A stretch of DNA of 64,000 bases from a virus, in the UHGV virus genome UHGV-1378817; one strand, written 5' to 3'. Numbering within the stretch: position 1 is the first letter of the stretch; each line of letters opens with the position of its first letter. This document shows, piece by piece, positions 37,688-59,528 of this stretch. The position numbers and the translations under genes were made by a program. The notes beneath the pieces were generated by a model, which did not search any database, was not told the DNA's origin, and saw nothing but the letters and a program-made list of their open reading frames with translations.

Positions 37688-37971
37688 TAATGAAAAAGAT
37701 TAACAGTAGTGAAGTCGAGTTTAAACTTGTCGGAAAAGGCACTTACTGGGAAGTTCGTCAAAAGGTATATTTGTTCGGTCTTATTCCTTACTGGTCTAAA
37801 TTCTACTGGGGAGCTAACGAGTGGGGAAGATACGCCACCAAATCAATGGCACTTATTGGTATAGCAGAGTACATTGCAGCCAGAGATAGGGTTGGAGACA
37901 CTTATTACTATACTGCGGACGATATTCGTAACAGTGTTTACGTCCCACAACCACCTGATGGAGACCGTTGA
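37684..37971 (+). CDS. hypothetical protein
   Basis: 95-aa ORF. Confidence 0.35.
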   Translation: MIMKKINSSEVEFKLVGKGTYWEVRQKVYLFGLIPYWSKFYWGANEWGRYATKSMALIGIAEYIAARDRVGDTYYYTADDIRNSVYVPQPPDGDR

Positions 37972-38195
37972 TGAAAGTTAAAGTTTTAGATTCAAGCTTC
38001 TATATTGGTCAGGAGCCCTTAGTGGGGAAAGTGTTTACTGCTGTCCCTAACGAAGATTACCCCGACCTTTTAAAAATAAAAGGGGCAGATCTTATTGCCG
38101 CTGGTGCATCTCAGGAATGCTTTGACAGTCAGTGGACCTACAACTTTGCCCTAGGTGAGGATGTAGAGATAGTGGAGGACAATCATGAAGGTTAA
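37968..38195 (+). CDS. small acidic protein, paralog family member
   Basis: MMKVKVLDSSFYIGQEPLVGKVFTAVP...KGADLIAAGASQE...EDVEIVED. Confidence 0.45.
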   Translation: MMKVKVLDSSFYIGQEPLVGKVFTAVPNEDYPDLLKIKGADLIAAGASQECFDSQWTYNFALGEDVEIVEDNHEG

Positions 38196-38439
38196 AATTC
38201 TTGATTCTAACGTCTACTTGGGACAATCCTTCCTGAAGGGAAAAGTCGTTCCTGCGGTATACTTTGAAGGGTTGCCGTGGGATGATCCTGTTCGGCAACA
38301 TCACAGTTATGTAGGCCACAACGTAGTGTTTATCTTAGGAGCAGACCTGATCACCGCTGGTGCACCTGAATATTATTTCGGGGAAGAGTCCTATTATGCC
38401 TTTGGGGTAGGGTCAGATGCAGATATTGTAGAGCTGTGA
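38185..38439 (+). CDS. small acidic protein, paralog family member
   Basis: MKVKILDSNVYLGQSFLKGKVVPAV...GADLITAGAPEY...DADIVEL; adjacent to paralog 37968. Confidence 0.45.
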   Translation: MKVKILDSNVYLGQSFLKGKVVPAVYFEGLPWDDPVRQHHSYVGHNVVFILGADLITAGAPEYYFGEESYYAFGVGSDADIVEL

Positions 38440-38451: not shown

Positions 38452-38850
38452 GTGAAAAATAAACTGTTCAAAGTTACAATGAAAATTCGCGGAGCTTGGA
38501 GCGTAAAGCAAGGGCGTATTCCAGAATTTGAGAAAGACTTCTACGTAGTCTCCACCTCGGAGGAGGCTGCATGCTGGCAAGCTGGCTATGCCTATGCAAG
38601 AACCTGGTACGAAGGATACCAGACTGGGGGCTATGACGGAGAAATTATCAGCAAGAGTGTAGAAGAAATTAATGTGTTGACAAGTGAAAAAGTTTTTGTT
38701 ATAGTGCATCCAGATTCCAGAGTGAAGCATTACTGGAATGCCAGAACAAAAACTTGGACACCGTTTGCAGATTCTGCTACGCCACTTTTAAACCAGAAAG
38801 CTCTTGACTCTGCCCCAAGTTATGGGGTTGTTGAAGAAAAGCTAAACTGA
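38452..38850 (+). CDS. hypothetical protein (paralog of ORF 40661)
   Basis: Shares HP-S...YW......WTP pattern with ORF 40661-41056. Confidence 0.4.
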   Translation: MKNKLFKVTMKIRGAWSVKQGRIPEFEKDFYVVSTSEEAACWQAGYAYARTWYEGYQTGGYDGEIISKSVEEINVLTSEKVFVIVHPDSRVKHYWNARTKTWTPFADSATPLLNQKALDSAPSYGVVEEKLN

Positions 38851-38867
38851 AACAGTGAGGTGCCACT

Positions 38868-39158
38868 ATGATGGATTTAGTTCTGAATATTGATAACGCA
38901 GGAGAGCTTAAAGACGATGGTGTAACAAGTATGGACAAACCCTGCTCTGCCGAGGTTGACTCAAAATGGACCTACAAGTTTGACGGAGAGATCTTCGCAA
39001 ATGATGAGAAGGTTGTAGATGCTGCAGCCATTTTGAACGCTTTAGGGTACGACCCTGTGAATTCTTTGATCAAGGATCCTGTTGAGTTTGCAGAGTATGT
39101 TCGAAAAATGGCAGATCTTGCTGTAGATATTTTAAGAACTATCGACAACAAGCTATAA
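38868..39158 (+). CDS. hypothetical acidic protein
   Basis: 96-aa ORF. Confidence 0.35.
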   Translation: MMDLVLNIDNAGELKDDGVTSMDKPCSAEVDSKWTYKFDGEIFANDEKVVDAAAILNALGYDPVNSLIKDPVEFAEYVRKMADLAVDILRTIDNKL

Positions 39159-39163
39159 AACTG

Positions 39164-39192
39164 TTGACACAACGCTTCGGCTATAGTATTAT
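39164..39192 (+). promoter_or_regulatory. sigma70-like promoter upstream of the HPF-like gene
   Basis: TTGACA-17 nt-TATTAT. Confidence 0.5.
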
Positions 39193-39241
39193 TGTTTTCA
39201 AAGAGAGATAGTTATTCCCTCTTCCTTAAAAGGAACACGTT

Positions 39242-39562
39242 ATGCAAATTGAAATCACTGGCAACAATGTAGAAATCACAGAAGGTATGGTATCTTTTAT
39301 TTCCCGCAAAATGTCCAAGCTGGAGCGTTTACATCCCTCTGTTAACTATGCACGTGTGAGTGTAAAAGTTGAAAATGATCACCAGGAAGTTATGGCGTTC
39401 ATTTTTGACAATTCTGGAAAAGAAGTTATTGCCAAGGCTAAAGGCAGTGATGCTTACGAGGCAACTGACCGTATGGTAGATGTTGCAGCACGTCAGCTGG
39501 CTAAATGCGGTGGAAAGAAAGGTAAGGGGAAAGGCAAAGTAAAGATTGACTTTGGAGAATGA
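39242..39562 (+). CDS. ribosome hibernation-promoting factor homolog (HPF/YfiA/RaiA family)
   Basis: MQIEITGNNVEITEGMVSFISRKMSKLERL... closely parallels E. coli HPF MQLNITGNNVEITEALREFVTAKFAKLEQY...; similar length, basic C-terminus. Confidence 0.7.
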   Translation: MQIEITGNNVEITEGMVSFISRKMSKLERLHPSVNYARVSVKVENDHQEVMAFIFDNSGKEVIAKAKGSDAYEATDRMVDVAARQLAKCGGKKGKGKGKVKIDFGE

Positions 39563-39699
39563 GGTGCTACAATGGGTGTGATTAAGAAATTAGTCCCAAA
39601 TGTAGAGATTGCATGCTTTGAAATTATGTTTGCAATCGCAGTTGTAGTTAATGTGTTAGGTTACGGCTATTAATATCAAATAATTGAGGAGACCTCTAA

Positions 39700-39969
39700 A
39701 TGAAAATTAAATTATTCAAAACTGAGCTGGCAGACAAAAACTGTGGACTGGTTGAAGGCATGATTGTTGAAGCACAACCAGTGGACTATATGAAGGTGGT
39801 TCGTGATGCCCTGGGTGAAGGTTTTGATCTGATGGAGCCAGCTCTGCGAGAAGATGTTATCGAGATGGCTAAAAAGCACACACCTGAAGGTTTGGTGGTG
39901 TTTGTTGCACCGGGTAACGGAGAAGAGTTGATTGTAACTCCTGATGTGTATGAGATTGTAGAGGAATAA
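39700..39969 (+). CDS. small acidic protein (possible distant family member)
   Basis: MKIKLFKTE...YEIVEE. Confidence 0.4.
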   Translation: MKIKLFKTELADKNCGLVEGMIVEAQPVDYMKVVRDALGEGFDLMEPALREDVIEMAKKHTPEGLVVFVAPGNGEELIVTPDVYEIVEE

Positions 39970-40060
39970 TCCTACTTGGATTAGCATACTTCCTCGATAA
40001 GGAAGATCTGTAATTATTTGTGGGAAAGGAATCCCAATCTCTTACCAGAGGTGATACTAT

Positions 40061-40328: not shown

Positions 40329-40661
40329 ATGAAAGTACGCTTTATTGGTGAAACAATTCCTGTGCATCTCCGGTCTCCTGAGGATTCTGCAGATCTTGCA
40401 TCTCAAAAGGCGAGAGGTTATGATAAGAAAGTAACCTCAACCGATGTAGTGCTTGAGGCTACCAGTCTACCTGACCCTGCTGCATTCTTTAATCATTATG
40501 GGTACTATTTCAGCAATCTGATGAATATCGGTGAGCTTGTGTTTATCAGTGGTGGAGAGATTGTTAGCAAGCTTGGCGGCGATCCGGATGTCTTTCATGA
40601 AACCTGTCCTTTTGCATTTGTGGTAGGTTCAGATGTGGAAGTTATTGAGGAGGTGCGGTAA
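40329..40661 (+). CDS. small acidic protein (possible family member)
   Basis: ORF 40302-40661 trimmed to Met MKVRFIGE; ends VVGSDVEVIEEVR. Confidence 0.4.
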   Translation: MKVRFIGETIPVHLRSPEDSADLASQKARGYDKKVTSTDVVLEATSLPDPAAFFNHYGYYFSNLMNIGELVFISGGEIVSKLGGDPDVFHETCPFAFVVGSDVEVIEEVR

Positions 40662-41056
40662 TGGTAAGCCTATACCGTGTTGAGTATAGCTCAGATACTG
40701 TATACAACGTAAGAAGCAAAGATCGCAGCGACAGAGTGCAAGAAATGTATGTTCTTGCCGACAGTCCGTTATCTGCAGCGTTCAAGGCAGGGGCTCTTGC
40801 ATCTCGTTGGAAATTCGAAGGTGGATCTTTCTATGAAGAAACCCTTGAAGATTCTGTTGTTATTTCTTCTGTAGAGGTTTCAGATGACTACGAAGGGAAA
40901 AAGTTCGTAATGCGGCACCCACACAGCAACATTGCGTACTACTGGGATGTTCTGAACAACGAGTGGACCCCAGATCTTCAGAAGGCTACTGTGCTAACAC
41001 CGTTTTTGGCAGATAAGTTCCCACCAGAAGGTAATTTATCCGCACTGTTTCAGTAA
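40661..41056 (+). CDS. hypothetical protein (paralog of ORF 38452)
   Basis: Shares HPHSNIAYYWDVLNNEWTP pattern with ORF 38452. Confidence 0.4.
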   Translation: MVSLYRVEYSSDTVYNVRSKDRSDRVQEMYVLADSPLSAAFKAGALASRWKFEGGSFYEETLEDSVVISSVEVSDDYEGKKFVMRHPHSNIAYYWDVLNNEWTPDLQKATVLTPFLADKFPPEGNLSALFQ

Positions 41057-44771: not shown

Positions 44772-45101
44772 TCAACACGCATGCATCTGAAGAGACATCT
44801 GAAGGAGTGACCATATGTCCATTGGCTGATCCAGTGAAAGGGGAAAACTTCGATTCTGAAGATTCTCCATCTTCGCTCCAGATAGATCCTGAGGCTGATG
44901 ACTTGACGTGGGGAGACATCGTAGATATCTGGTTCTCTATTATGCCTGAGCACGAAGAGTTCAGAGGTGGTAGACTATGAAGCACCGAGCCCACACAGGT
45001 TCCTCATGCTAAAGCATGGCCTGAAGAGGCAAACGTGCATAATTCCCGTGCATTGGAACGTATAAAACCCTGTTCACACTCTCATTTCCAGAGGAGATTT
45101 C

Positions 45102-45317
45102 ATGAAGATAGAAATATTTGGTGGGGCTGACAACACTCGTGGCCTGATTTACCTTGAATTTGATGAATCATACCTGCCAGAGGTGTTAAATATAGACTCT
45201 GTTGCTGAGGCTTTGGGAGTAAACCCTAAAGAACTCCACTCTTGTGCTGAGATCGATGGTTGGGAAGAGACCATGAACATTGATTTCAGTGAAGTAGAGG
45301 ACGAACCGCTGGACTGA
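45102..45317 (+). CDS. small acidic protein
   Basis: MKIEIFGG... 71 aa with GGAG RBS; last gene of the plus-strand block. Confidence 0.4.
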   Translation: MKIEIFGGADNTRGLIYLEFDESYLPEVLNIDSVAEALGVNPKELHSCAEIDGWEETMNIDFSEVEDEPLD

Positions 45318-45446
45318 CACACAATTAGCTGCCCGGCTAAAGTGCTGGAAGCGCACCTATAACACATCTTTCAACTAAATTTCCTACCACCACAATCACT
45401 TACCTCCAACACATGACTGTTTGCTTGTTTAGTGAGCAGTCATGCC

Positions 45447-45474
45447 TTGACATTCTTGCCTATCCTGATAAAAT
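45447..45474 (+). promoter_or_regulatory. sigma70-like promoter reading into a GC-rich non-coding segment
   Basis: TTGACA-16 nt-TAAAAT with no ORF downstream; followed by about 270 nt of unusually GC-rich sequence ending in a G-run and T-rich stretch near 45730-45760. Confidence 0.4.
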
Positions 45475-47725
45475 TAAGTTCTTCTCTTTTCTTTTACCGA
45501 GTAATTCGGGTTTTCTGTTCTCTTCGGTTTGAAGGGGTATGGAGATACACCTGAGTGAACAGGGTGAACAACCGAACCATTGGCTATGGCATTAGCATGG
45601 CGAAGCGGACGGGTGACGAAAGAGGGGCCGGAGGACACCAGTCACTGCCATATGATATATGGGTGATAACCTGAAGAGTCTGAATAAGTGTTTAAGTACC
45701 AGTCAGAGGAAAAGGTGAATGGTAGCCGAAGGGGGAGGGGGGTTTCTTGTATCTTTAATTTGTATATTATGTATACACTTGTAAACCAATATCATCTAGA
45801 TCTGTTTACCACACAAAGTGGATAGAGACAAATATTACCTATTAAACTTGAATTATTTATAGAAAATACCACAACACCACTTAAGTCTTTGATTTTACAC
45901 ACAAATCTTACAGATATTCAACCTCCATATTTAACATACCTGTAACATATTCCATACTCTACCTGCCTGATCAATTTCCCCAACTACATCCCTCATATTT
46001 CCCCTGTCTGTACTACCCTGCCCCACCGGGAGTCCCGTCATATCTGGCTTTCCAGCAAATATCACACCCACAAATATCATGCCTGAAGAGGGTTTCATCC
46101 CATAATACCTGCCTTGCCTGAAGAGCGCTTCATACACCACGTAAATTTTTTAATTGACCTCCCCTGCCCCGCCGGAGAGGTTGGCTTTTCCCACACAGAC
46201 CTGAAGAGTCAGCCAGAAATATCTGAATAGGCCCAGTTCTACCACGATTTTGACCTGACCTACAGGAGCGCTGCCAGGCGGACGAAATGGGAATACTTCT
46301 CATTCTTATAACAATTCTCAAATATCGAGGCAGTGAGGCAAATTAATAGGCCAGGCCGTTCACACAGTGGCACAACATTTGCAACCTATCTTGTGGGGGT
46401 GAATGAGAATACCTATCATTGTGAGAACCATTATCATTACGGGCAATTTAACATAATACCCATTATGCGCACCACTGGTGATACATACAGGGATTGATAA
46501 CACGAGTTACAGTTTACGCATATAACAATCATATTTCTTACTATTTGTGTGGGATATAGTTAGCAGCCGATAGATTAGATATTGACCTGTGGACTTCCAA
46601 CCGTCTAGACGTCTAAGCGCCCACACAACAAGGCTTATACATACATTACTGAATGTAAACAGGGCCGCAAAAATGCTACCATACCAGTTTGTAAATTTTC
46701 ATGCAGCACTTGACAAAGAGGAGGAAAACTTGTCTGACACAATGTCACACAATATGACACAATAACGGCTGTTACCATTCCATATCTCACTGTTTACGCA
46801 TAGACTGTTTACGCCTGGATAGTTTACACCTTGACAGTTTACACAGATATGATAAGCCATGACATTCGTTTGCATGAAAACAATTAGCAAGTTAACAATT
46901 AACAAGTTAATAATATATGACATAATATAAAAGCAGGGCAACTATTAGAAGATCTATAGTTGCCTTGCTTGTTATGTCATGATTAACTAAATACAAGGCA
47001 ACTATGATCTGATTAATAGTTTGCAGACAAACTATCACGGGGGTGATGGTTACTGCTTTTATATTATGTCGCGACTCCGTCGCGCCATGCCATTCGTTTG
47101 CATAGTTGCCTTATTGTTACAGATAAAATAATTGTATTGTTAATTATTTCTTATCTTTCTATTAGTCATCTAATGATTCCGGTTAGTATAGTAACGTACA
47201 GTAAACATTAGACGACTAAATATTTCTATGTTTATGATAACCTATCGTGACAATTCCGGACTGTTTACGAAAAATGTTGACACCTGAGCTGATTTATGTT
47301 ATGCAATTTAAACGAATAATTATTTTATGCAGGTATTGACTATTCCGTTATTCTATGGTTGGAATAAATACTTAGCAAGCTATAGAATGGTGAGCGTACG
47401 TAAATTCTGAGATTTGTCGGCTATAGTTATACTCGATTTTTCACGTAGAACACGCTTTTTGGTTTGTGTAAGTGTATGACTTATAAAGATTTTTAGTTGT
47501 TGACAAGATATTGAAGATGTGCATCAGGTTAAATTTTGTGCAATAGCTGCATTACGTGCAATTTTGGAAGGAAAACTGGTAAAAATAGCACCGATACCAC
47601 ACAATGAAAGGTTATGCAATAGCTATTTTATATGTATATTTGTACAGTGTGCAGGATTGATGGCTCGTCAATTATTCCACTTGCCAGGTAGGGCCGTTTA
47701 TGGTAGGGGAAGAGCAGACAAAAAG

Positions 47726-47744
47726 AAAGGGGCCTAAGCCCCTT
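47726..47744 (-). terminator. rho-independent terminator (minus strand)
   Basis: On the minus strand AAGGGGC-ttag-GCCCCTT followed by TCTTTTT, immediately downstream of the stop of ORF 47763-48182. Confidence 0.5.
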
Positions 47745-47762
47745 GATAATTCAGTTAAAAAA

Positions 47763-48182: not shown

Positions 48183-48326
48183 GGTGTTTTTACCTCTTAG
48201 TTAATTTTCTTACAACTTCCCTTCAAAAAAGAATATAGCAAAACTGCCGATCCCTGTCAACCAAGGATGGCATAATTTTTATGTGATCAAGGGGCTTTAT
48301 TGCCCCTGACCATGTAACTTGTTGTA

Positions 48327-48590
48327 TTATTTGTTATTCATCCAGTTTTCCCAAGCTGCCTGATAATCTGCCTCACTGCGGCGGATCTCTTCTTGCTCTT
48401 CAAGCCGGATCTCTTCTTCTAGGTACCCCAAGATATCGGCTTTTTTGGTCTGGCGTAACATCCAATCATCTTTTTTACGGGTAAAGATCTTATATGCTTT
48501 CTCGCAAACCTCTTTTTTGCTACCTTTTTGGACTTCAAGAACTTTGTAGGCCATGTACTGAACTAGTTTGAGCTGATCAAGACGTTTCAT
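48327..48590 (-). CDS. hypothetical protein
   Basis: 87-aa charged ORF. Confidence 0.4.
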   Translation of the reverse strand: MKRLDQLKLVQYMAYKVLEVQKGSKKEVCEKAYKIFTRKKDDWMLRQTKKADILGYLEEEIRLEEQEEIRRSEADYQAAWENWMNNK

Positions 48591-48653
48591 GATGTTTACC
48601 TCTTTATGGGGTTCTGGTTTGGTGTGGGCCTTTTGGCCCGTGTCATTATCTTA

Positions 48654-48926
48654 TTACTTACGGCGGCAAAATTCAAGTGTTTTTAATTGATAATCTTCCT
48701 CAGCTTGGAGTACAACCGCCTCGATCATTTCGTTGGCATTGGTGAAGCCATACCCTTGAGCGAACTCATCCGCGCCACCTTCGTGATCATGTTCTGCGTT
48801 CATCGCTTCCACAAAATGGAATTCAAGATTATTGAGGTAAGGGCTTGATGTTCCGTCCTCTTTTTCGATGAGATCCCAGATAGCATTAAAACGTGATTCG
48901 ACTTCTTGATTAATCCAGCTTGACAT
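48654..48926 (-). CDS. hypothetical acidic protein
   Basis: 90-aa ORF. Confidence 0.4.
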   Translation of the reverse strand: MSSWINQEVESRFNAIWDLIEKEDGTSSPYLNNLEFHFVEAMNAEHDHEGGADEFAQGYGFTNANEMIEAVVLQAEEDYQLKTLEFCRRK

Positions 48927-49139
48927 AATGTTTTCCTCTCTTCTGGTTGTTGTGTGGGCACTTTTGCCCCTTCAAGATAAATGATACCCCCACCACCTGG
49001 CAGATGTCAACGGTTTTTATAGTTTTTTATATAACAGGCACCCCCGGTGATTGTCTCCCCCCGTCGCCAGGTGCCTGCCGTGAAACAAGTATAACAAAAA
49101 ACAGGACCATTGCAAGCCCTGTTTTGTAGTTTATAAATA

Positions 49140-49331
49140 TTATATTTTTTCGCCTATGTAGTCCGGTCGGTTTTTCTCTGTCATGCGCTTTAGCAATTCT
49201 TGCATGTTGCTTATGGCTTGTAGTGTATCCCCTTCCAGGCTTGAATCGACATAATCAGGATCGTCTATGACCTTTCTATGATTATGATAACGCAGTACCG
49301 CCAATACCTTTCTAACTTGTTCGATATTCAT
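49140..49331 (-). CDS. hypothetical protein
   Basis: 63-aa ORF. Confidence 0.35.
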   Translation of the reverse strand: MNIEQVRKVLAVLRYHNHRKVIDDPDYVDSSLEGDTLQAISNMQELLKRMTEKNRPDYIGEKI

Positions 49332-49480
49332 TTTTACCGCTCTTTAAAACAAGGTGCCAACCGTTTCCAATAGATCACTAACTATCAGGACAATACTGAT
49401 CAGCACATATCTAACCATAAGGGGAAAGAGCGCCAGCGATCCCGCCACAATCCCCAAGGTGATGATTATCTTTCTCATGG

Positions 49481-49765
49481 TTAACGGTTTACGTAAGTTT
49501 TCCCGTTCACGGTTATGGGCAGATCCTCCAGGTCTGGATCTTCCTTAAGGTCGCGAGCAAGCTCACCGCACCGGATACCCTCGAATCCGTAGTACTCTGT
49601 CGTGCCGTCCTTAAAAGTTTTAGCGGCAAGGCATAAGCGATAAGTAACCCCGATTCGATTGACGGCATGAATATCCGTTAGATTAACCTCTTTTGCCAGC
49701 TCTTTAGCCATTACAGGCGCATTAAGTCCAACAACCAGGGCAACCACTGCGATCATCTTTTTCAT
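49481..49765 (-). CDS. small secreted protein
   Basis: MKKMIAVVALVVGLNAPVMAKE signal-peptide-like N-terminus. Confidence 0.45.
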   Translation of the reverse strand: MKKMIAVVALVVGLNAPVMAKELAKEVNLTDIHAVNRIGVTYRLCLAAKTFKDGTTEYYGFEGIRCGELARDLKEDPDLEDLPITVNGKTYVNR

Positions 49766-49856
49766 TGTGTCTATCCTCTTTCTGCTACGTTTAAGGCGGA
49801 GGTAACCGCCTGTTTATGCTTTGTTGGTTAATTTTCGGGTATCGGTATAAATTAAA

Positions 49857-50072
49857 CTATGCTGTACGTTCAACTATAACAACGGTTTGGGGGATCTCAC
49901 CTTCCACCACTAATAAGGCCTTTTTCTGCGTGATGGATATCTTTACCCGTTGCAGCGTGGCGGTGAAGTCTTTCATTTCGTCACGTGGTGTTTTAGTGCA
50001 ATACCAGATCTCAGGCTTGCCGATCTGTAAGTTGCGTAAAAATTCCGTTTTGCCTGTTTTGTTAGTGATCAT
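49857..50072 (-). CDS. hypothetical protein
   Basis: 71-aa ORF. Confidence 0.35.
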   Translation of the reverse strand: MITNKTGKTEFLRNLQIGKPEIWYCTKTPRDEMKDFTATLQRVKISITQKKALLVVEGEIPQTVVIVERTA

Positions 50073-50263
50073 TTGCCAACCTCACCCGATACCGTTGGAA
50101 GACAAGATCACATTAGCCATGGTTGCAATCAGGCCAATACCCAGGGCAATAACCAGGATCACCGCATCAATTAATTTCTGTTTCATGGTGTTTATTCTCT
50201 TCTGTTAGTAACCTTATTCATGGGGCCGCTACTACAGCCCCAGGGTAAGGCGGCTATGTGCTT

Positions 50264-50551
50264 TTAGTGTTTCATTCCAACCATCGCGGCACGGATCGCC
50301 GTAGTGCTGTACTTGAAGCCGTCCGGGGTCTTATCTTGTCCGGTTAGCTCCAGAAAAAGCATCATATCCCGCGCCGCATCATTACGATTAGCATTAGCGT
50401 TAATAAAGCCTTGGGCCAACCGGTACAATGACTCATCGTTATTAATCCAAAGGCTTACATTCCAATGAGTTTTGTTTTTGTAACCGTTATAACCTTTATT
50501 GCTTTTCATGGTGTTTACCTCTTCTTTGTTCCAGGTGGCGGACCATTCCAC
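50264..50551 (-). CDS. hypothetical protein
   Basis: 95-aa ORF. Confidence 0.4.
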   Translation of the reverse strand: MEWSATWNKEEVNTMKSNKGYNGYKNKTHWNVSLWINNDESLYRLAQGFINANANRNDAARDMMLFLELTGQDKTPDGFKYSTTAIRAAMVGMKH

Positions 50552-50602
50552 CGCCTTATGTATTATGCTTTGTTAGATGGTTGTTTGTTGTCAAACTATT
50601 TT

Positions 50603-50782
50603 AACGATAATCATCGTACGCTTTATTAACCTGGCGAATATAACATTCAAAAGCCAGATCAATAGATTTATATTCACGGATATATTCACCATAGGAAACC
50701 ACATACATTTCTATAGCTTCCTCATATGCGAGGAGAATAGAATCTAAGCCTACGATCTCAGTCTTTGCAATAATAGCCATGA
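50603..50782 (-). CDS. hypothetical protein (~59 aa)
   Basis: Manual translation MAIIAKTEIVGLDSILLAYEEAIEMYVVSYGEYIREYKSIDLAFECYIRQVNKAYDDYR; preceded on the minus strand by TTGACA-16-TAGTAT promoter, GC hairpin and AGAGGA RBS. Confidence 0.35.
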
Positions 50783-50855
50783 TTTTTATCCTCTTTGTGG
50801 TTGGTGGGGCTTGTTGCCCCCTTTGATTTATATACTACAGTCTTATATGGTCATG

Positions 50856-51089
50856 TCAACTATTTTCAAAAAATTTTTCTGCTGTAATATTTTTCCCGGT
50901 AGGGTTCGCTACTTTCAAAATTTTATCATGCACTGGACGCCCAAAAGAATAAGCGCCGTACACAGTGCACCAATAATCGCCGTCAGGCTGTACTATTACC
51001 GCCGCATAGGGTACGCCTTTTTCGTTTTTGCTGACAAAATAGATCACGTTGCCATTAATAGCCTCGGCGCGTTTAATTTGTTCCATCAT
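50856..51089 (-). CDS. hypothetical protein
   Basis: 77-aa ORF. Confidence 0.4.
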   Translation of the reverse strand: MMEQIKRAEAINGNVIYFVSKNEKGVPYAAVIVQPDGDYWCTVYGAYSFGRPVHDKILKVANPTGKNITAEKFFENS

Positions 51090-51145
51090 GATGATTTGCC
51101 TCTCTTTATTTTCATAATTGGGGGGCCTTTTCGGCCCAGCCAGGT

Positions 51146-51430
51146 TTATTTATTGATAGCGTGCAGCGGGAAAGGTACGCCAGGTTGATAGATAACTTTT
51201 ACAACCTCATCAGGACAAAAGAAGTTGCAGAACTCACCGCAATAGGCCTCATCCTCTTTCAACTCTTCATCAATATACTCAAAAAAGTAGTCGATGCTTG
51301 GATAATCTTGCCCTGGGTTATAGTCAACCATTGTCAGGACCAGTTCAAGATCGTTGCGTAGGATATGCATACCCGCTTTTAAGTATTTTGCTTCCATTTC
51401 TACTACATCGCCAGCGGTAACAATAGCCAT
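51146..51430 (-). CDS. hypothetical acidic protein
   Basis: 94-aa ORF. Confidence 0.4.
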   Translation of the reverse strand: MAIVTAGDVVEMEAKYLKAGMHILRNDLELVLTMVDYNPGQDYPSIDYFFEYIDEELKEDEAYCGEFCNFFCPDEVVKVIYQPGVPFPLHAINK

Positions 51431-51657
51431 GGTTTTAACTCCTATCTATCCGGTTAATGATTGGGGGCCGCCCCCCTGATGAGTCCTATTATCCATATTG
51501 TAGGGCTTGATGCAAGTACTTATTTAAAAAATTTTTTAAGCGCTCCGTATGCCGTTGTAACGCCAAAATAATAAAGGCCATGCAACCGCATAGCCTTTAT
51601 GTGATTATATCGCTGCAGGCCCTGCCAGGGGCCTTATTTTGCATCATTTTACCGGAA

Positions 51658-51957
51658 CTATACAGAGAAAACATCGTTCACAATAGCGATCACAATGCCG
51701 CCCACCTTGTCACGGTCAACAATGCACAAATCACCATAAATCATGTGGTAGTCTGGATGATCTTTCACGGAATAGTCAATGAGTGTTTTCTTGTCGTCCA
51801 GCTTTGTAACTTCCATTCTCATAACGATATGAGAATCATCAAAGGCATTATTCCGAAAAGTCATAGCCTGACCACCAGGGCACCCAGTGATCTCAACTTC
51901 CACACCGTCTACGATCTGACCATCAAAGAAATAAAGATTATTAGCCGGGATAAACAT
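51658..51957 (-). CDS. hypothetical protein
   Basis: ORF 51658-51966 trimmed to ATG (MFIPANN) with AAGGAG RBS; downstream of palindromic promoter copy 1. Confidence 0.4.
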   Translation of the reverse strand: MFIPANNLYFFDGQIVDGVEVEITGCPGGQAMTFRNNAFDDSHIVMRMEVTKLDDKKTLIDYSVKDHPDYHMIYGDLCIVDRDKVGGIVIAIVNDVFSV

Positions 51958-52001
51958 GTTTATCACTCCTTGTTAACTGCGTGTTATTTTACCACGATTA
52001 A

Positions 52002-52047
52002 AATTTACTTTACCGATGGCCCTGAAGTCAAGGCCATCTAAAAATAA
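52002..52047 (-). promoter_or_regulatory. conserved palindrome-embedded promoter element, copy 1
   Basis: About 46 bp, near-identical to copies at 55714 and 56335; on the minus strand a TTGAC -35 sits inside the inverted repeat GATGGCC...GGCCATC. Confidence 0.55.
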
Positions 52048-52049
52048 AT

Positions 52050-52250
52050 TTACAGGCCTACAATCTCTTTGATTCGTTTTACTGCTGCCTCAGCGCCTTG
52101 GGGGTAGAAATTATGGTAACCGATCACGCGAGTGATACTAATCGCCGTTTGATGATCTTCATAATCGCCCTTGAAGATTTCTTGACCGTCAATCAGCACG
52201 GCAATTTTTTCTTCTTTTTTGAAGTTAATAACGCGGATATTGTTGCTCAT
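52050..52250 (-). CDS. hypothetical protein
   Basis: 66-aa ORF. Confidence 0.4.
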   Translation of the reverse strand: MSNNIRVINFKKEEKIAVLIDGQEIFKGDYEDHQTAISITRVIGYHNFYPQGAEAAVKRIKEIVGL

Positions 52251-52727
52251 TTTGTTTCTCCTTTCTGGTTTTTGTGTTGGTGGGGATTAGCTCCCCGTTG
52301 ATTGTCATTATCCACATTCTGGACCGGATTGCAACACCCCGGAAGAAAAATTTTTTAAAAAGATAGGCCCCATGATCGGGGGCTGTTCTTAGTTACTTAC
52401 TGCGATAAAGTACATCCCTACGCCTAGCAATATTTCAAGGGCGATGATCTCAAGCCATACCATAACCCGGCGCGCCTTATCGGTGCGGGGCTTATCCTTG
52501 GTTGTCATCGTCTCCCCCTTTCCTCCTGGTAGTAGTGACGCGATCTACAATGACCCCCAGGAGTCCTATCACGACACACATCACGAGAAAAATTATCTCC
52601 GCTGTTGTTCGGTCCATTATTATAAAAGTCCTCAAGATCAGGCCTGAAAATAAAGCTTTCGTTATTGAATCCATCACGCCAGGCGGCTGGCTTCAAATCT
52701 TCATTAAAGGGATTAATTAACGTGGTA

Positions 52728-53099
52728 TTATTTAAACGGCTGGCCCACATATTTTCTATTCCTCTCAAATAGGCGATCCGCCTCAGTTAAACATATCTCA
52801 TGGGCTTGATCTCTGGTTTTAGCTTCATCAAAAACCTGTTGCGCCAGGCTGCAACGTAGGGAGACTGGAAGATCACTATAATAGGCGTTGACAAACGTTT
52901 GAGCGTCGTACAGGTCTGAAAATACTTTACCCTTTCTATTATCGCCTTTGTCAACAATTGCAAGGATAACAAGTACAATAGTTGCAACCACCCCCAGGAA
53001 AATAGATATAATAAACCATAAAAAGGCGGATCTACCTATCTTGCCAGCGATCCAGGCGTTGAACAAGGCAACTACTACAGCCAAAATAATAAATTCCAT
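52728..53099 (-). CDS. membrane protein
   Basis: ORF 52728-53132 trimmed to Met MEFIILAVVVALFNAWIAG; two hydrophobic helices; AGAGG RBS. Confidence 0.45.
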   Translation of the reverse strand: MEFIILAVVVALFNAWIAGKIGRSAFLWFIISIFLGVVATIVLVILAIVDKGDNRKGKVFSDLYDAQTFVNAYYSDLPVSLRCSLAQQVFDEAKTRDQAHEICLTEADRLFERNRKYVGQPFK

Positions 53100-53163
53100 T
53101 CTATGTACCTCTTTTGTAGTTCTGTTTAACAATAAGGCGGCAAATATGCCGCCTGTTACCTGA

Positions 53164-53544
53164 TTAAAAATTATCGCCGTAAATCTTTCCGCTTTCTACC
53201 CATACCACCACGCGAGGCATACTATCCCACACGTCTTGTTTTAGATTGAGCGCGTGCAATTCTTCGGTGGTGCTCATACCGGGCACGGGCTGATTGTATA
53301 CTGCAAAACGACCGCCTGCATAATCATAGGCCAGGGTTAAATCACACTGGATCATCTTTTTGATCATGGCATTAAGCATGGCGTTAGCCGCATATTGATC
53401 ACGTTTTAAAGGCAACTCTTTGATTAGTTTGCGATAGTTTTCGATATGGTCGCACACTGTTTCACGAGGAAGATCTTTCATATCTTCACGGAATGTAACC
53501 AGGTTAAACATAACGGTGTCAATAGCCTTGGTAGTGTTTTTCAT
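53164..53544 (-). CDS. hypothetical protein
   Basis: 126-aa ORF. Confidence 0.4.
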   Translation of the reverse strand: MKNTTKAIDTVMFNLVTFREDMKDLPRETVCDHIENYRKLIKELPLKRDQYAANAMLNAMIKKMIQCDLTLAYDYAGGRFAVYNQPVPGMSTTEELHALNLKQDVWDSMPRVVVWVESGKIYGDNF

Positions 53545-53634
53545 GATGTTATCCTCTTTGTTTTGTGTTGGGGCAAACGTCTTGCCCCCTTGAGTTTTAA
53601 TATAGCAGGTTTTTAGGTTATTGCAACACTTTAT

Positions 53635-54258
53635 TTATGAAAAAGTCATCTCACCATATTCATCGACATCAAACCGCCAATCATTGGCCTCGATAAGGCC
53701 GATCAGGTTTTCTGCGGTGAACTGTTCTAGATAGGCCTCCTTCAGGTCTACGTAAACCTTGCGGGATAGCTCCCGTACCGTCTCGGTGATCAGTTCTTCC
53801 AGGTCTTCCACTTTGTTTTCTTGTTTGGCGGTCAGATCTAGCCAAGTGGTATCAATGTACCCGCTTACAGTGTTTTCATGGCTGTAATGGCTGTACTTGT
53901 CGCGTTCAACACTGGCTGATAACTCGCCATCGTGCATTGTGCCGAACAAGTGACGAATTGATCGGAACTTGGTCAGGGCCTTTACTTTACGCAAAAATTT
54001 TTCTAAATCCACGTTTTCAGCACTGATTGACGCGCCGTCACCCTGGCACCAAAAGCCGGACCAATGTACTTCGGTATCTTCAAGGCCGTACTCTGGAAAG
54101 ATATATTCTTTGTAGTGTTCAATTACACTTTCTGCAAAAAAGTTATCCCCGCTGTGTTCTTCTCTTTCGCGGACCATTTCAATAGCTTTTTCTTTTTGTT
54201 CGTCGGTCAGCACGTCGAAAGATAAATTGTAACCTGTGGTAATGTTAACGGTGGTCAT
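53635..54258 (-). CDS. hypothetical protein
   Basis: 207-aa ORF; contains FWCQGDGASIS; no family assignable by eye. Confidence 0.45.
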   Translation of the reverse strand: MTTVNITTGYNLSFDVLTDEQKEKAIEMVREREEHSGDNFFAESVIEHYKEYIFPEYGLEDTEVHWSGFWCQGDGASISAENVDLEKFLRKVKALTKFRSIRHLFGTMHDGELSASVERDKYSHYSHENTVSGYIDTTWLDLTAKQENKVEDLEELITETVRELSRKVYVDLKEAYLEQFTAENLIGLIEANDWRFDVDEYGEMTFS

Positions 54259-54332
54259 GATATTTTCTCCTATTTTCTTTGTTAGTGGCGGGAAAACTTC
54301 CCGCCTGTGTGCTTAAGTATACTTATTGAGAT

Positions 54333-54593
54333 TTACTTGTCAACACTATTTTTTAAATTATTGTGGCGTAAAATATTCAAGATCTCTTCAACGTCATCAA
54401 CACGGCGGCAATTTTTAAACGCTACCAATTGCCCCAGGATTTTAATCACTGGACGGCCTTGCCAGTGCCCTTGGAGAAAGCGCGCTTTAACTTTATCGGT
54501 GGAACTATCACGCCACCAAATAGCCTTGTTGTTGCAGTAGTAAAAATTATTCAGGATAACATCAACTTTATCAAAATTTTTTAATTTACGCAT
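54333..54593 (-). CDS. hypothetical protein
   Basis: 86-aa ORF preceded by a minus-strand TTGACA-16-TATACT promoter. Confidence 0.4.
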   Translation of the reverse strand: MRKLKNFDKVDVILNNFYYCNNKAIWWRDSSTDKVKARFLQGHWQGRPVIKILGQLVAFKNCRRVDDVEEILNILRHNNLKNSVDK

Positions 54594-54997
54594 GGCGTTT
54601 ACTCCTTTCTCTCTTTGATGTGGTTAGTATAGCTAACCTGTTGACGATGTCAATGATATTTTTAACGCCATGAAACGGCCCTGGGCGATGTTTTCAGGTT
54701 AAAGGGGGCGATTGCATAGGTGGGGCCTTTTTGGCGCTTACAGGGCCAACCAGGGGCGCTATTCGTAGGATAGAAATAAAAAGCCCCGCACAATGGCGGG
54801 GCGTTGGTTGTTATTTGCCTTTGTGGCGGTATCGTTCCGCCTGTCGTTCACGTTCCAAAAGCAGGCCCGGTAATTTGCGATCATAATGATTCCGCCAGAT
54901 CTTCCCAAATCTTTTTGGCTTATTCAGTTTATTGTTGCGCTGGCGGCGTTCCGGCAGCTCTTCGGAAGCATGAGATCGCTTTACAATCTTCTCAAAA

Positions 54998-55351
54998 TTA
55001 ATCTTCATATATTCCCCCCTTGCTAACTTCAATATTGGCCTGAATAGCCCGGATACGGCGCTTTATAACTTCCTGATCTGTGTGATCGTATCCCCAAAAG
55101 TCTACGATTTTTGCGCCTCCAGCCTTTAGGCGGTATAGTGTTTCTTGCATCTTGTAAGCCGGGATCGGTCGCGGTGTTACCTGGTCGCCCTTCTCATTCT
55201 TGTACTTGATAATGTAGTCTTCATTGTCGTTGAATACCCAAAATGGGTATTCTGTGAGCGCGTTGCTCTCTTTTTCGTTTTTAGATTGGATCTTGTTTAC
55301 AATTAAAGCCGTAGCAATAGCGCCAATAATAAAACTTGCCCCGCTGATCAT
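54998..55351 (-). CDS. membrane-anchored protein
   Basis: ORF 54998-55414 trimmed to Met MISGASFIIGAIATALIV; AAGGAG RBS. Confidence 0.4.
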   Translation of the reverse strand: MISGASFIIGAIATALIVNKIQSKNEKESNALTEYPFWVFNDNEDYIIKYKNEKGDQVTPRPIPAYKMQETLYRLKAGGAKIVDFWGYDHTDQEVIKRRIRAIQANIEVSKGGIYED

Positions 55352-55426
55352 GTACTTTCTCCTTTCATTGTGTTGATAAACTGTCTTTATAGATGGCCCT
55401 GCTACCAGGACCACCGAAAAAACAGC

Positions 55427-55672
55427 TTATTTGACGATACCGACAAAACAGATCCCGCCTTCCCCTATATAGGCAATATCGGTAATTTTATAATTTGTCA
55501 AGATCCGCGTGTTCAGATCATTAATAAAATCGGTCATCGCGTTGGTGTAGTTGTCTTCCGTGTCTAAGGCATAATCCCAGGTGTAAACCTTTTTACGTCC
55601 GAAGCCTTTTACCATGATACGGGCGCTTTTGGTGTTGGTAGGGGCATAATATTTAGTGATTAGTGCTGCCAT
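55427..55672 (-). CDS. hypothetical protein
   Basis: 81-aa ORF with AGGAG RBS; downstream of palindromic promoter copy 2. Confidence 0.45.
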   Translation of the reverse strand: MAALITKYYAPTNTKSARIMVKGFGRKKVYTWDYALDTEDNYTNAMTDFINDLNTRILTNYKITDIAYIGEGGICFVGIVK

Positions 55673-55713
55673 GGTTTTAACTCCTATGCATTAGTTCAGT
55701 GTTAACAGTATAA

Positions 55714-55759
55714 AGTTTACTTTATTGATGGCCCTAAAGTCAAGGCCATCTAAAAATAA
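55714..55759 (-). promoter_or_regulatory. conserved palindrome-embedded promoter element, copy 2
   Basis: AGTTTACTTTATTGATGGCCCTAAAGTCAAGGCCATCTAAAAATAA on the plus strand; same element as copies 1 and 3. Confidence 0.55.
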
Positions 55760-55761
55760 TC

Positions 55762-56103
55762 TTACTCGTTTTCTTCCAGCTCCGCAAGCTCTTCTTTTGC
55801 TTCTTCCAACCCTGTCTGTAATTCCTGGTATTCTTCATCGTCCTCAATATCCAGGCTGTCGATGTAGTCGCTAAATCCGCAGCGGTAAGCGATAGGATCT
55901 AGCTCCTTGAGGATACGCGACGGAAGAAAAGAAATGTTTCCGATCATAATTTCGCCGTAGATCTCGTCTAACCATTCATCATAGTTTTCGTCGTACTTGT
56001 CCTCGTCGATTTCAAAGTTATCGATCTTATTCTCAAGGTCTGCGATCTGTTTTTTCAGCGCGGCGATCTGCATAGCTTTTTCTGCGGCGGTCATAGTAGT
56101 CAT
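55762..56103 (-). CDS. hypothetical acidic coiled-coil protein
   Basis: 113-aa ORF, highly acidic C-terminus. Confidence 0.4.
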   Translation of the reverse strand: MTTMTAAEKAMQIAALKKQIADLENKIDNFEIDEDKYDENYDEWLDEIYGEIMIGNISFLPSRILKELDPIAYRCGFSDYIDSLDIEDDEEYQELQTGLEEAKEELAELEENE

Positions 56104-56179
56104 GGTGTTTTTCTCCTTTTGTGTGTTCTGGGAAGTTTTCCCGTTTATGTGCTTATTATATCGATTTAAGTTAGCTTGT

Positions 56180-56302
56180 CAATTAAAAGTTTAAGAAAAA
56201 TTTTGCGACACCGTTGGCGCTACCCATCAACATTTGCGCCAGGATGTACCCAATGATGCAAACGATGATGGTTACCTTTGTGTGCTGGCGTGTAGTACTC
56301 AT
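56180..56302 (-). CDS. small hydrophobic membrane peptide (~40 aa)
   Basis: Manual translation MSTTRQHTKVTIIVCIIGYILAQMLMGSANGVAKFFLNF; G-rich RBS; downstream of palindromic promoter copy 3; below the ORF-track cutoff. Confidence 0.35.
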
Positions 56303-56334
56303 CTTTAAGCCCCCTTTTCCGCTCAACTGTGGTT

Positions 56335-56380
56335 AGTTTACTTTATTGATGGCCCTGGTGTCAAGGCCATCTAAAAATAA
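56335..56380 (-). promoter_or_regulatory. conserved palindrome-embedded promoter element, copy 3
   Basis: AGTTTACTTTATTGATGGCCCTGGTGTCAAGGCCATCTAAAAATAA; differs from the other copies mainly in the 3-nt palindrome centre. Confidence 0.55.
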
Positions 56381-56382
56381 GC

Positions 56383-56787
56383 TTAATAAGTTTTCAGTAC
56401 TTTCCCGTCCAATCTGTCAAGCTGGATCTCGATAGCTGCAGAAAACCTATTGTAAACCACATCACCCATAGAATCCAACCAGTCTATGACATTATACACT
56501 TGCTCTTTGTTCTTGCAGGTCCGGATCCGTTTCATGATGTAAGCCGGATCAATATTGGTACTCTCGTTGGTGTTCCCCTGTACCTTGTTTGCCGTATTAG
56601 TTACATCTTTAATGGCCTTTACCACCACCTGGAATGGCTTTAAGGTGCCTTTTGCGTTCATCTCACGCGCTTTTGCGGCGCGGTTGTTATATGTTACACA
56701 ACGGCGGCAAATGTTGATCAAATGCATGTCAATAATTTTTTCATCGTTTGCCAACTCGTTCATGATGCGGCGTACGTTCTTATTCAT
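56383..56787 (-). CDS. hypothetical protein
   Basis: 134-aa ORF; minus-strand TTGACA promoter, GC hairpin and RBS upstream. Confidence 0.45.
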   Translation of the reverse strand: MNKNVRRIMNELANDEKIIDMHLINICRRCVTYNNRAAKAREMNAKGTLKPFQVVVKAIKDVTNTANKVQGNTNESTNIDPAYIMKRIRTCKNKEQVYNVIDWLDSMGDVVYNRFSAAIEIQLDRLDGKVLKTY

Positions 56788-56869
56788 GATCTTTTTCCTT
56801 TGTGCTGGCGGGAAACATTCCCGCCTTTTGTGTCTAGTTTATTTAAATTTTGCAGCGTGTCAATGATTT

Positions 56870-57268
56870 TTATTCGTGGGCGCATGTTACAATGTGCTTT
56901 TTATAGCCCAGGTGGTCAGCAAGTGCCGACAAAAACTCTTCTTCGTAGATCCAGCCGTCGGCAGTGATCCCCATAGCATTTAATGCGCTCTCAAGTGCTG
57001 CGTTAGCTTTATCGTAACCGTGACCGCTCGCCTTGCCGCCAGTATAACCGTACTTATTGTTCTTGTTGTCGTGAATCCAAAACACGCAGTAGTGAGTGTT
57101 ACCACTGGCGGCGGCATAATACCGGATCTCAGCTACTTCGTGCAAATTATTGTCATCGTCCAGGCCCACCAGATTATAAGCCTTGTAAAATCCACGATCA
57201 CGGCGGCAGTTCTTGACATCAGAAAAAGAAAAGTCCGCATTATCAAAATTAAAGGTAGTGGTTTTCAT
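56870..57268 (-). CDS. hypothetical protein
   Basis: 132-aa ORF. Confidence 0.45.
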   Translation of the reverse strand: MKTTTFNFDNADFSFSDVKNCRRDRGFYKAYNLVGLDDDNNLHEVAEIRYYAAASGNTHYCVFWIHDNKNNKYGYTGGKASGHGYDKANAALESALNAMGITADGWIYEEEFLSALADHLGYKKHIVTCAHE

Positions 57269-57332
57269 GATTTTATCCTCTTAGTGTCTTTTGTGCTTTT
57301 AGTGTATTTGGTGTCGGACTATATGTCAATAC

Positions 57333-57530
57333 TTATTTTTTATTAAACCAGTGGTTGATCTGTCCTTTTGTCAGGGCGCAACGATTAAGCTGTTGCCGGG
57401 TATAGCTCTGACCGCGACGGAATTTATAAAGGCCTTGCCCGTTGTTGATGGTTACGTCCACCTGGCAAACCATTTGATCGGTGACCACCTGGCGAGTGTT
57501 GCGACGTACTTTGATCCCGTATGCGTTCAT
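57333..57530 (-). CDS. small basic protein
   Basis: ORF 57333-57608 trimmed to Met MNAYGIKVRRNTRQ with AGAGGA RBS; minus-strand TTGACA-16-TATTAT promoter near 57590-57620. Confidence 0.4.
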   Translation of the reverse strand: MNAYGIKVRRNTRQVVTDQMVCQVDVTINNGQGLYKFRRGQSYTRQQLNRCALTKGQINHWFNKK

Positions 57531-57611
57531 AAATTTATCCTCTTTACTGGTTAGTGCGGTGTTGTTCACCTTGTAGGGTAATAATACCATGATTAACCTT
57601 GTTGTCAACGA

Positions 57612-57752
57612 TTATTTTAAATTATTTTTATGATAGAATCCACCTGCCGCCCCCGCCAGGTTAACCACCATTTTTTCGTACTCTTCTTTATGTTCTCGCG
57701 CTTCTGTATCATTAATCACTACATTTCCCAGGTGAGTAGCATTACCTTTCAT
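57612..57752 (-). CDS. hypothetical small protein (~46 aa)
   Basis: Manual translation MKGNATHLGNVVINDTEAREHKEEYEKMVVNLAGAAGGFYHKNNLK with GGAGGT RBS. Confidence 0.3.
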   Translation of the reverse strand: MKGNATHLGNVVINDTEAREHKEEYEKMVVNLAGAAGGFYHKNNLK

Positions 57753-58766
57753 TTTTGTACCTCCTCTTCAATTGTTTTCCCTACAGCATGGGCCTACCAG
57801 GTTTGCAAGATTTCACCCTCTCCCACCTGGTCAGTTAGGTCCTGCCAGGCTGGCCCCGCCAGGTTGCAACGGTTAGCGCATCAGGTTAGAAAAATTTTTT
57901 GAAAAGGTGTTGACAGCGGCCCCGCCAGGTGGCACAATATACCTATCGAAAGGACGGCAGGCACCGGTGACGGGGGAGACAACCACCGGGGATGGGCGCT
58001 GCATAAAATGAGAACGGTTATCATTATCATTTAAAAATTTATGCAAAAAATCCTTGCCTTCTTTGTCCTGTGTGATACTATAATAACAAGCCGGGGCAAC
58101 AGGGGCCGGGAGACAATCACCGGGCCTGCCCGTTATTCTGCAAACGAGAATGATTATCATTCAAAATTCTAAATGAGAACTCCTCGCATTTAATAAATTT
58201 AATTAGCACGCTAATTACCCTCCGTAACAATTTCCTATAAAATAGTATCCACTAAAATATTCCCATATAGAAATTTTAAAAATCCATTTCTGAAAACGAA
58301 AAATCGATTTCGTCCCCAAAAATTTCAGGTCGAGAGCTGGAACGATTTCCAGAAAATCCGATTCAGAAAACGAAAAACAGATCGAGTACTGAGAAATTTA
58401 TCGAGAAAAATTTTCAGAAAATTCAATCTTTGAAACGAAAAACAGATCGAGTACTTGGAAAGCTGTACCGCAACTTCAAGATAGTGGCTGGATTATTGCC
58501 ATAAAAGGCCAAGGGCGAGTGGGAAAGTTCTGGTAGAAGGGTGTGAGCATACGCGGAAAATCTGGAATGGTAGCCCGGAATATGACGCAAACGATAGGAT
58601 GAGTGGTTCAGCTCATCGTGTCTACCCTGAAAAATCCATTTTAGTTTTCGATCCGTTTTCTGATTTTCTAAGAATTTTAAAATATCTGGCCTGGTGAAAT
58701 ATCAAAAAGGAGGAAATCCATTTTAGAAATCCCCCTTATACTTGATATGCCAGAAATTTTCAAGTA
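57753..58766. repeat. 1-kb ORF-free, repeat-rich intergenic region
   Basis: No credible ORF; GCCCCGCCAGGT(T/G) repeats, two tandem paralogous units, 68-bp-spaced direct repeats, AAATCCATTT motifs; itemised in findings. Confidence 0.55.
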
Positions 58767-59356: not shown

Positions 59357-59528
59357 AGTAGAAATGACCGTTAATTATCCCAGTTTTGTGCACATGGTCA
59401 CCAGATCCTGCAAGAACAATCTCGCAAGCTCCGAAATCTACCTTACCATTCTCATCTGCCATGGCTACAATATACTTTCCTAGAGGCATGTTTTCAACGC
59501 CGTCTACAAATGTCCACCCTTTGTTCAT
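59283..59528 (-). CDS. hypothetical protein
   Basis: 81-aa ORF. Confidence 0.4.
   Translation of the reverse strand: MNKGWTFVDGVENMPLGKYIVAMADENGKVDFGACEIVLAGSGDHVHKTGIINGHFYFDYNPVVAYMAMPEFEFPKEGADV

Follow-up and report, generated by a model that had tools for sequence, protein, structure and literature searches.

The window analysed here, the whole 64,000-nucleotide stretch of the viral genome UHGV-1378817, belongs to an rV5-like E. coli phage of the genus Vequintavirus: the 1.2 kb around the gene under study matches 118 phage records at 80–99% identity, all of them from rV5-like Vequintavirus myoviruses. This gene, hpf, encodes a homologue of the ribosome hibernation factors HPF and YfiA. 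Whereas the E. coli hpf gene adjoins rpoN, the phage gene stands in a block of small genes that forms a co-directional array. The ORF coordinates and the promoter string (TTGACA-17-TATTAT) of the initial annotation proved exact, and the features of the locus are as follows:

39164–39169, plus strand: −35 element TTGACA of the predicted promoter, part of the conserved block AAACTGTTGACAC (39158–39170); matches the annotated P144
39187–39192, plus strand: −10 element TATTAT, after a 17-nt spacer
39201–39223, plus strand: 5′-leader hairpin AAGAGAG ... CCCTCTT, a weak feature
39230–39234, plus strand: Shine-Dalgarno sequence AAGGA of hpf, 7 nt 5′ of the ATG, read from the sequence
39242–39562, plus strand: hpf ORF, ATG start, 106 aa, TGA stop
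39242–39511, plus strand: HPF domain, supported by PF02482, TIGR00741, 2rql, AlphaFold and Foldseek
39512–39559, plus strand: lineage-specific C-terminal tail GKKGKGKGKVKIDFGE, residues 91–106, net charge +4, predicted disordered
39560–39562, plus strand: TGA stop codon of hpf
39572–39673, plus strand: 33-aa hydrophobic ORF (rV5 ORF145), 9 nt 3′ of hpf, annotated in rV5 and relatives

That the gene is the Vequintavirus (rV5) hpf, ORF144, is practically certain. The rV5 reference (DQ832317) labels ORF144 a “sigma 54 modulation factor” and places a “Sigma70-type promoter; P144” at the equivalent of 39164–39192, and the names hpf, ribosome hibernation factor and RaiA are used for it in other records. 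Its product gp144 (ABI79209) has 97% amino acid identity to the window protein, and the two genes share the same neighbours and the same annotated promoter; the window allele differs by one extra Asn (GNNVEIT, as in E. coli HPF), which makes it 106 rather than 105 aa long, and by two substitutions, H22R and A34V (rV5 to window). The product name RaiA used in RefSeq is generic and not a subfamily assignment. The gene, its promoter, its family assignment and the hibernation idea are already in GenBank and the literature, so that the finding as such is not new; the distribution, a deeper relative, the selection acting on the gene and the lineage-specific residues and tail are the modest new details added here.

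Labels at this locus are uneven across the deposited genomes. In several records (e.g., MT884009 and OR062525) hpf is mislabelled “ATP-dependent protease La type I”, and 18 rV5-like genomes are deposited as “Campylobacter phage”. A second HPF-like gene, the ORF at 39700–39969 that carries the name “sigma 54 modulation factor” in, e.g., MN850646 and KR698074, was considered and rejected: since its comparison with HPF by BLASTP reaches only E = 0.17 and Pfam has no match to it, the label is an annotation-propagation error. Pfam searches likewise returned no domain for the neighbouring ORFs of hpf that were covered, among them those of 132 and 131 aa, and no match for the 33-aa ORF. Among these neighbours, the ORFs at 37968–38439, 38452–38850 and 40661–41056 resemble paralogue pairs (MKVKVLDSSFYIGQ... 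/ MKVKILDSNVYLGQ...), the 132-aa and 131-aa ORFs have a similar C-terminal “...HP.S....YW.....W.P” region, and several end in an acidic “...VE(I/E)VEE”.

Family membership and predicted fold

The initial annotation had proposed a comparison with profiles of the HPF/RaiA family, and the matches lie above the curated cut-offs: Pfam PF02482 (Ribosomal_S30AE) reaches 56.7 bits, where the gathering cut-off is 23.7 (E = 4.2e-15, residues 3–89), and TIGR00741 (HPF/YfiA family) scores 56.8 bits against 40.9. A phmmer comparison with E. coli HPF (2rql) aligns residues 1–90 to 1–89 of the latter, also at E = 4.2e-15. The similarity had been described as running along the N-terminal half of the protein; the homology is indeed strong, but its extent was understated, as the whole HPF domain (residues 1–90 of 106) is matched. 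Neither subfamily model is reached: the short-HPF equivalog (NF007780 / PRK10470) scores 65.2 bits, below its cut-off of 125, and the RaiA/YfiA equivalog (NF007654 / PRK10324) 22.8 bits, below 158. The identity is 43% to the solved E. coli HPF as against 21–23% to YfiA chains.

The AlphaFold model, with a mean pLDDT of 85 and values above 90 over most of residues 1–80, has the elements E2–8, H14–30, E34–44, E47–56, E61–68 and H71–90, followed by a tail with a pLDDT of about 46–52. When this predicted model was used as a Foldseek query against the PDB, all 38 matches at E ≤ 1e-3 were to HPF, YfiA, pY and related hibernation factors, the best being V. cholerae and E. coli HPF (rmsd 1.1–1.6 Å, TM 0.8–0.9, 34–43% identity); weaker fold matches include dsRBDs. 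By these sequence and structure comparisons the product of ORF 39242–39562 is a genuine member of the HPF/YfiA family, nearer to the short HPFs than to YfiA, and an outlier of both. With E. coli YfiA (RaiA, protein Y) it shares the family, the fold and a C-terminal extension beyond helix alpha-2.

Distribution, origin and selection

The gene is essentially universal in Vequintavirus and a core gene of the genus, being present in 118–119 of about 120 records (119 by tblastn, as against the 120 that a control query taken from another part of the window detects). Among 5.8 billion proteins there is only one further close homologue, P0004, at 64–66% identity. Its gene holds the syntenic position, among co-directional small ORFs, on contigs of about 126–137 kb from a distant relative that has no representative in the phage collection and to which the Logan contigs L002, L003 and L004, of up to 126 kb, belong; at most 19% of the 8.3-kb locus around P0004 aligns to any Vequintavirus record by megablast, at 81–88% identity. 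P0004 is listed as an E. coli protein at NCBI, presumably from phage DNA within a bacterial assembly. In the distant relative L002 no gene is called at the position of the 33-aa ORF. A word-indexed protein search with phage HPF recovers five proteins, all from the phage clade, and an exhaustive search of 1.8 billion cluster representatives finds the best cellular HPF at 44% identity.

From the syntenic copy in the divergent relative it follows that hpf predates the split of the two phage lineages. Synonymous sites are saturated between the window gene and that of P0004. A “relatively recent” transfer from the host has been suggested (PMC6375957); the 43% identity to E. coli HPF and the retained synteny at 64% identity do not support it, and the next best representative at 44% together with the saturated synonymous divergence from P0004 argues against it. 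Among rV5-like alleles, dN/dS is 0.04–0.08 with dS up to 0.7 (Nei-Gojobori). The phage protein is under strongly purifying selection and is therefore functional. An HPF homologue under such selection in a very common and therapeutically used coliphage group must do something useful.

Promoter, leader and transcription

The hpf promoter matches 11 of the 12 sigma-70 consensus positions. The rV5 gene has TATCAT as −10 element where the window has TATTAT; the A at position 2 and the T at position 6 are common to all relatives. Ten rV5-like phages and the distant relative, whose HPF is 64% identical, all have the −35 block AAACTGTTGACAC unchanged, whereas the surrounding intergenic sequence has diverged; the −35 element AAACTGTTGACA is also found in the relative that carries P0004. 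Counting sites with at least 11 of 12 consensus positions and a spacer of 16–18 nt, we found 20 in the window against 1.6 expected from 100 first-order Markov simulations (sd 1.4, maximum 6). Those on the plus strand extend from 11836 to 45447, and seven of the nine on the minus strand lie at 48260–60142, the other two being at 3822 and 6973, at the left end of the window. An extended −35 element, xTGTTGACA, is common to many of the window promoters (42 one-mismatch matches to CTGTTGACA against 19.6 expected), and promoters similar to that of hpf lie at 36710, 38677 and 41075. The genome paper of rV5 lists 33 predicted sigma-70-like promoters. Because such sites are enriched in the window and the −35 block is invariant in relatives, the hpf promoter is unlikely to be a chance match.

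Consensus, enrichment and conservation together bear out the claim that hpf has a promoter of its own, in the sense of a predicted sigma-70 promoter; the implied transcriptional independence is doubtful. A sequence scan found no convincing terminator 5′ or 3′ of hpf, so that read-through from upstream and co-transcription with the downstream ORFs are likely. Upstream promoters probably read into hpf, and transcripts from P144 probably continue into the 33-aa ORF, which would then be co-transcribed with hpf, and beyond. A second promoter-like site at 39546–39573 (TTGACT-16-TACAAT with an upstream TG, 10 of 12 positions) falls within the terminal codons of hpf and extends over the start codon of the 33-aa ORF; an active promoter here would drive the ORF at 39700, not the 33-aa ORF.

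The AAGGA Shine-Dalgarno sequence is kept across the aligned rV5-like phages. The leader hairpin has a perfect 7-bp stem in rV5 (AAGAGGG-N7-CCCTCTT), has one mismatch in the window allele and is absent from the distant relative, where the Shine-Dalgarno sequence directly follows the promoter. It might stabilise the mRNA, a suggestion without statistical support, as its folding energy is indistinguishable from that of shuffled sequences (z = −0.34). An Rfam E-value scan of 38800–40000 gave no match to any family, the raiA motif included. With no such match and a fold no better than shuffles, a regulatory RNA in the leader is not claimed.

Residues at the ribosome interface and the C-terminal tail

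We placed the phage proteins in an alignment with 85 short cellular homologues; residue numbers of the window protein are one higher than those of E. coli HPF after residue 55. Of the E. coli HPF and YfiA sequences used for the residue and tail comparison, that of HPF agrees with the PDB alignment over residues 1–89. Most of the columns conserved in the family are kept in the phage: G7, T13, K23, K26, L27, R29, E44, G59, A64, D70, Y72, D76, D80, R84, Q85, K88 and K92. Three columns that are Lys or Arg in 85–91% of the 85 cellular homologues are non-basic in the phage lineage:

window residue 17: E. coli R17; V in the rV5 clade, V in P0004
window residue 81: E. coli K80; V in the rV5 clade, T in P0004
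window residue 90: E. coli K89; G in the rV5 clade, S in P0004

Only one of the 85 cellular homologues lacks all three basic residues. Compared with the E. coli short HPF (YhbH; 2RQL, 6H4N, 4V8H), the phage protein keeps the equivalents of K26, D75, R83, Q84 and K87 and replaces R17, K80 and K89 by V, V and G. Phage K26, R29, R84, K88 and K92 would retain the contacts of E. coli positions 26, 29, 83, 87 and 91; the K91 equivalent is retained in the clade of the window and is Ser in the distant relative. The E. coli-type contacts Y30, T53, H55, H62 and N86 differ in the phage, and several of them differ between the two phage lineages. If Q29, an Arg in the phage, is included, about seven of the 16 E. 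coli-type contact positions given in a 2025 preprint on hibernating ribosomes of Gram-negative bacteria are retained, no better than the overall identity of 43%. As judged from these alignments, the ribosome interface of phage HPF does not look specially preserved.

The same preprint describes K80, R83, K87, K89 and K91 of helix alpha-2 as strictly conserved basic rRNA contacts, assigns positions 80, 83, 87, 89, 91 and 93 to an extended positive surface and shows the YfiA tail running towards the RMF site. The consequences of losing part of this surface have been studied in S. aureus HPF, whose basic patches on the two helices comprise K27, R30, K84 and R87: the K84A/R87A mutant (the equivalents of K80/R83) keeps 70S binding and loses dimerisation, and binding is lost only when the alpha-1 patch is mutated too. 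The N-terminal domain of this long HPF, which has conserved basic patches on both helices, is homologous to the phage protein, whereas the phage protein has neither the C-terminal dimerisation domain nor an equivalent of K84.

After residue 90 the phage protein carries a tail of 16 residues, as against six in E. coli HPF (95 aa). It is a basic, Gly-rich Lys/Gly tail with a net charge of +4, in contrast to the 24-residue tail of YfiA, which is acidic at its end (net −4). The tail varies among deposited genomes: in phage YN3 (L007, 401–712) it has a 6-nt in-frame deletion, in APCEc02 (L012, 401–706) an extra G in a G-run causes a +1 frameshift of the last ~15 codons, and the tblastn match in Murica also stops at residue 89. 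The changes in APCEc02, Murica and YN3 are either sequencing errors or real tolerance. Together with the lineage-specific residue losses, the Lys/Gly tail offers a concrete handle on the function of phage HPF.

Published work on the phage protein

Virus-encoded HPFs were catalogued by Mizuno et al. 2019 (Nat Commun 10:752, PMC6375957), who listed rV5 (ABI79209), the closely related coliphage entries FV3, 2 JES-2013, O157 typing phage 14 and FFH2, and Cronobacter phage GAP32, in one class of translation genes with HPFs of uncultivated viral contigs and with phage bS21, bL12 and bL9. The GAP32 copy belongs to the same class as a separate and more divergent acquisition (PMC6375957), and tblastn with the phage protein did not recover it at E ≤ 1e-5. 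[quoted passage not shown] In this the rV5 protein differs from viral bS21 and bL12, which are incorporated into ribosomes, and from E. coli HPF. The same study proposed that viral HPF may compete with the cellular homologues and prevent ribosome dimerisation (PMC6375957). Mathieu et al. 2020 (Nature Communications) mention hpf in rV5-like isolates “as already described”, and our literature search found no later functional study of rV5 HPF. The suggestion of the initial annotation that a phage copy could park or protect host ribosomes is partly challenged by the published absence from purified 70S and 100S. More broadly, translation factors encoded by phages illustrate viral manipulation of the host ribosome.

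Possible function

We tentatively favour, at well short of firm belief, a reading in which phage HPF is a monomer-type (YfiA-like), weak and salt-labile occupant of the 30S decoding site that gives no support to RMF-dependent 100S dimers. The protein is a divergent short form within the HPF/YfiA family; its gene would stem from an ancient acquisition of an HPF of enterobacterial type and has remained in the core set of the genus. It is probably transcribed by unmodified host sigma-70 RNA polymerase from the near-consensus promoter soon after infection, such early expression being suggested by promoter type and gene neighbourhood only. Like HPF and YfiA, the product would bind vacant host ribosomes reversibly, in the tRNA/mRNA channel of their 30S subunit, through the retained contacts (E. 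coli K26, Q29, which is Arg in the phage, D75, R83, K87 and K91). Without equivalents of R17, K80 and K89, and with the flexible 16-residue tail after helix alpha-2, binding would be weaker and salt-labile and RMF-dependent 100S dimers would not be supported; weaker, non-dimerising binding is expected because the K80/K89-type contacts are lost and a flexible basic tail stands where the YfiA tail heads to the RMF pocket. The phage protein may thereby behave as YfiA does, a monomer-type factor that blocks 100S formation. As a net effect, ribosomes released from host mRNAs would be held as protected 70S monomers that are quickly reusable, and hibernation driven by host RMF and HPF would be pre-empted. 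We infer the ribosome binding, its site, the monomer-type behaviour and the benefit to the phage alike.

High salt strips hibernation factors from ribosomes. In vitro work with HPF, as in the S. aureus mutagenesis study, starts from “salt-washed ribosomes”. A monomer-type occupant fits the unchanged 100S levels upon expression of rV5 HPF (PMC6375957) and is not contradicted by the absence of the protein from salt-washed ribosomes. Nevertheless, absence from purified 70S and 100S speaks against any form of stable binding, though not decisively, since the ribosomes had been isolated from uninfected, arabinose-induced cells with high-stringency salt (PMC6375957). It also counts against this model that the contact positions are not specially preserved and that the tail, which varies and is even out of frame in some deposited genomes, may not be critical.

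Other readings of the same evidence differ in what the protein does to the ribosome, or whether it acts there at all. If phage HPF worked as its cellular counterpart does, it would join host RMF in converting 70S ribosomes to 100S dimers, by which host ribosomes would be silenced and stored during takeover. The sequence and predicted structure, which are closest to the short HPFs of Enterobacteria and Vibrio, and the retention of most family-conserved residues speak for such a role. We nonetheless hold it improbable, given that expression left 100S unaffected and the protein was absent from 100S fractions (PMC6375957), that the equivalent of E. coli K80 (S. aureus K84, one of the two residues altered in the mutant that no longer dimerises ribosomes) is replaced by Val or Thr in the phage lineage, and that an early shutdown of ribosomes would seem counterproductive for a 137-kb lytic phage. 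A somewhat less unlikely proposal, though still one that we doubt, is that the protein acts as a counter-defence that competes with or displaces host HPF, YfiA and RMF, so that ribosomes of starved, stationary-phase or defence-dormant cells are kept or made available for phage mRNAs. This corresponds to the hypothesis of Mizuno et al. (PMC6375957); the missing dimerisation-linked basic residues and the extended basic tail are in keeping with an occupant that does not promote dimers, a review reports a rise of RMF in DRT2-mediated defence with dormancy suggested to stop phage propagation, and rV5-like phages are common gut coliphages (Mathieu et al. 2020). A competitor must, however, bind at least as well as the host factors, whereas no ribosome association was detected (PMC6375957), and the A and P sites would be blocked by the protein itself for as long as it remained bound. 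The proposal overlaps with the monomer-type occupant that we favour and differs mainly in the claimed benefit. Its most specific form is unlikely: here the Vequintavirus protein would be a weakened HPF mimic without K80/K89-type contacts, made immediately on infection, whose tail occludes the RMF site and which blocks host 100S dormancy, whether caused by infection stress, starvation or an RMF-inducing defence. Growth of gut hosts is probably slow, and such a mimic, if real, could allow the phage to replicate in slow-growing gut E. coli.

The published lack of ribosome association (PMC6375957) might also mean that the HPF fold, which is dsRNA-binding-domain-like, has been kept while its target is no longer the ribosome but, for example, a phage or host transcript, an RNase or the sigma-54 machinery, the last of which might be suggested by the old gene name. 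It accords with such a change of target that conservation at the contact residues does not exceed that of the protein elsewhere, that these residues differ between the two phage lineages, that identity to the host HPF is only 43% although the same ribosome would be targeted, and that dsRBDs appear among the weaker fold matches. Yet A-R-Q-L-x-K, the most conserved ribosome-contact motif, is intact, as are D75 and K26, all under strong purifying selection, and the neighbouring genes, devoid of Pfam matches, suggest no other partner; we therefore regard exaptation, too, as improbable. As for a decaying passenger gene or an annotation artefact with no function, the tail frameshift or indel in a few deposited genomes could be read in that way, but a dN/dS of 0.04–0.08, the near-universal presence in Vequintavirus, the synteny in a divergent relative and the conserved promoter and ribosome-binding site leave it hardly any probability; the dN/dS and the near-universal presence in the genus effectively refute it.

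Other features of the window

Two further regions of the window are of note. At ~45,000–47,750 there are about 2.7 kb without an ORF of more than 80 aa, in which most short ORFs have non-ATG starts; by offset from the position of hpf this block corresponds to the “non-coding” block 104013–106618 of rV5. It had no Rfam match at gathering thresholds and lies between the last near-consensus promoter of the plus strand (45447) and those of the minus strand from 48260 on. On the minus strand, 2518–3330 contains seven clustered tRNA genes (Pro, Met, Thr, Ser, Tyr, Arg), one of them an odd 99-nt call at 2763–2861 with a four-base “anticodon”, atcc, and a weak Rfam tRNA score (35.5 bits).
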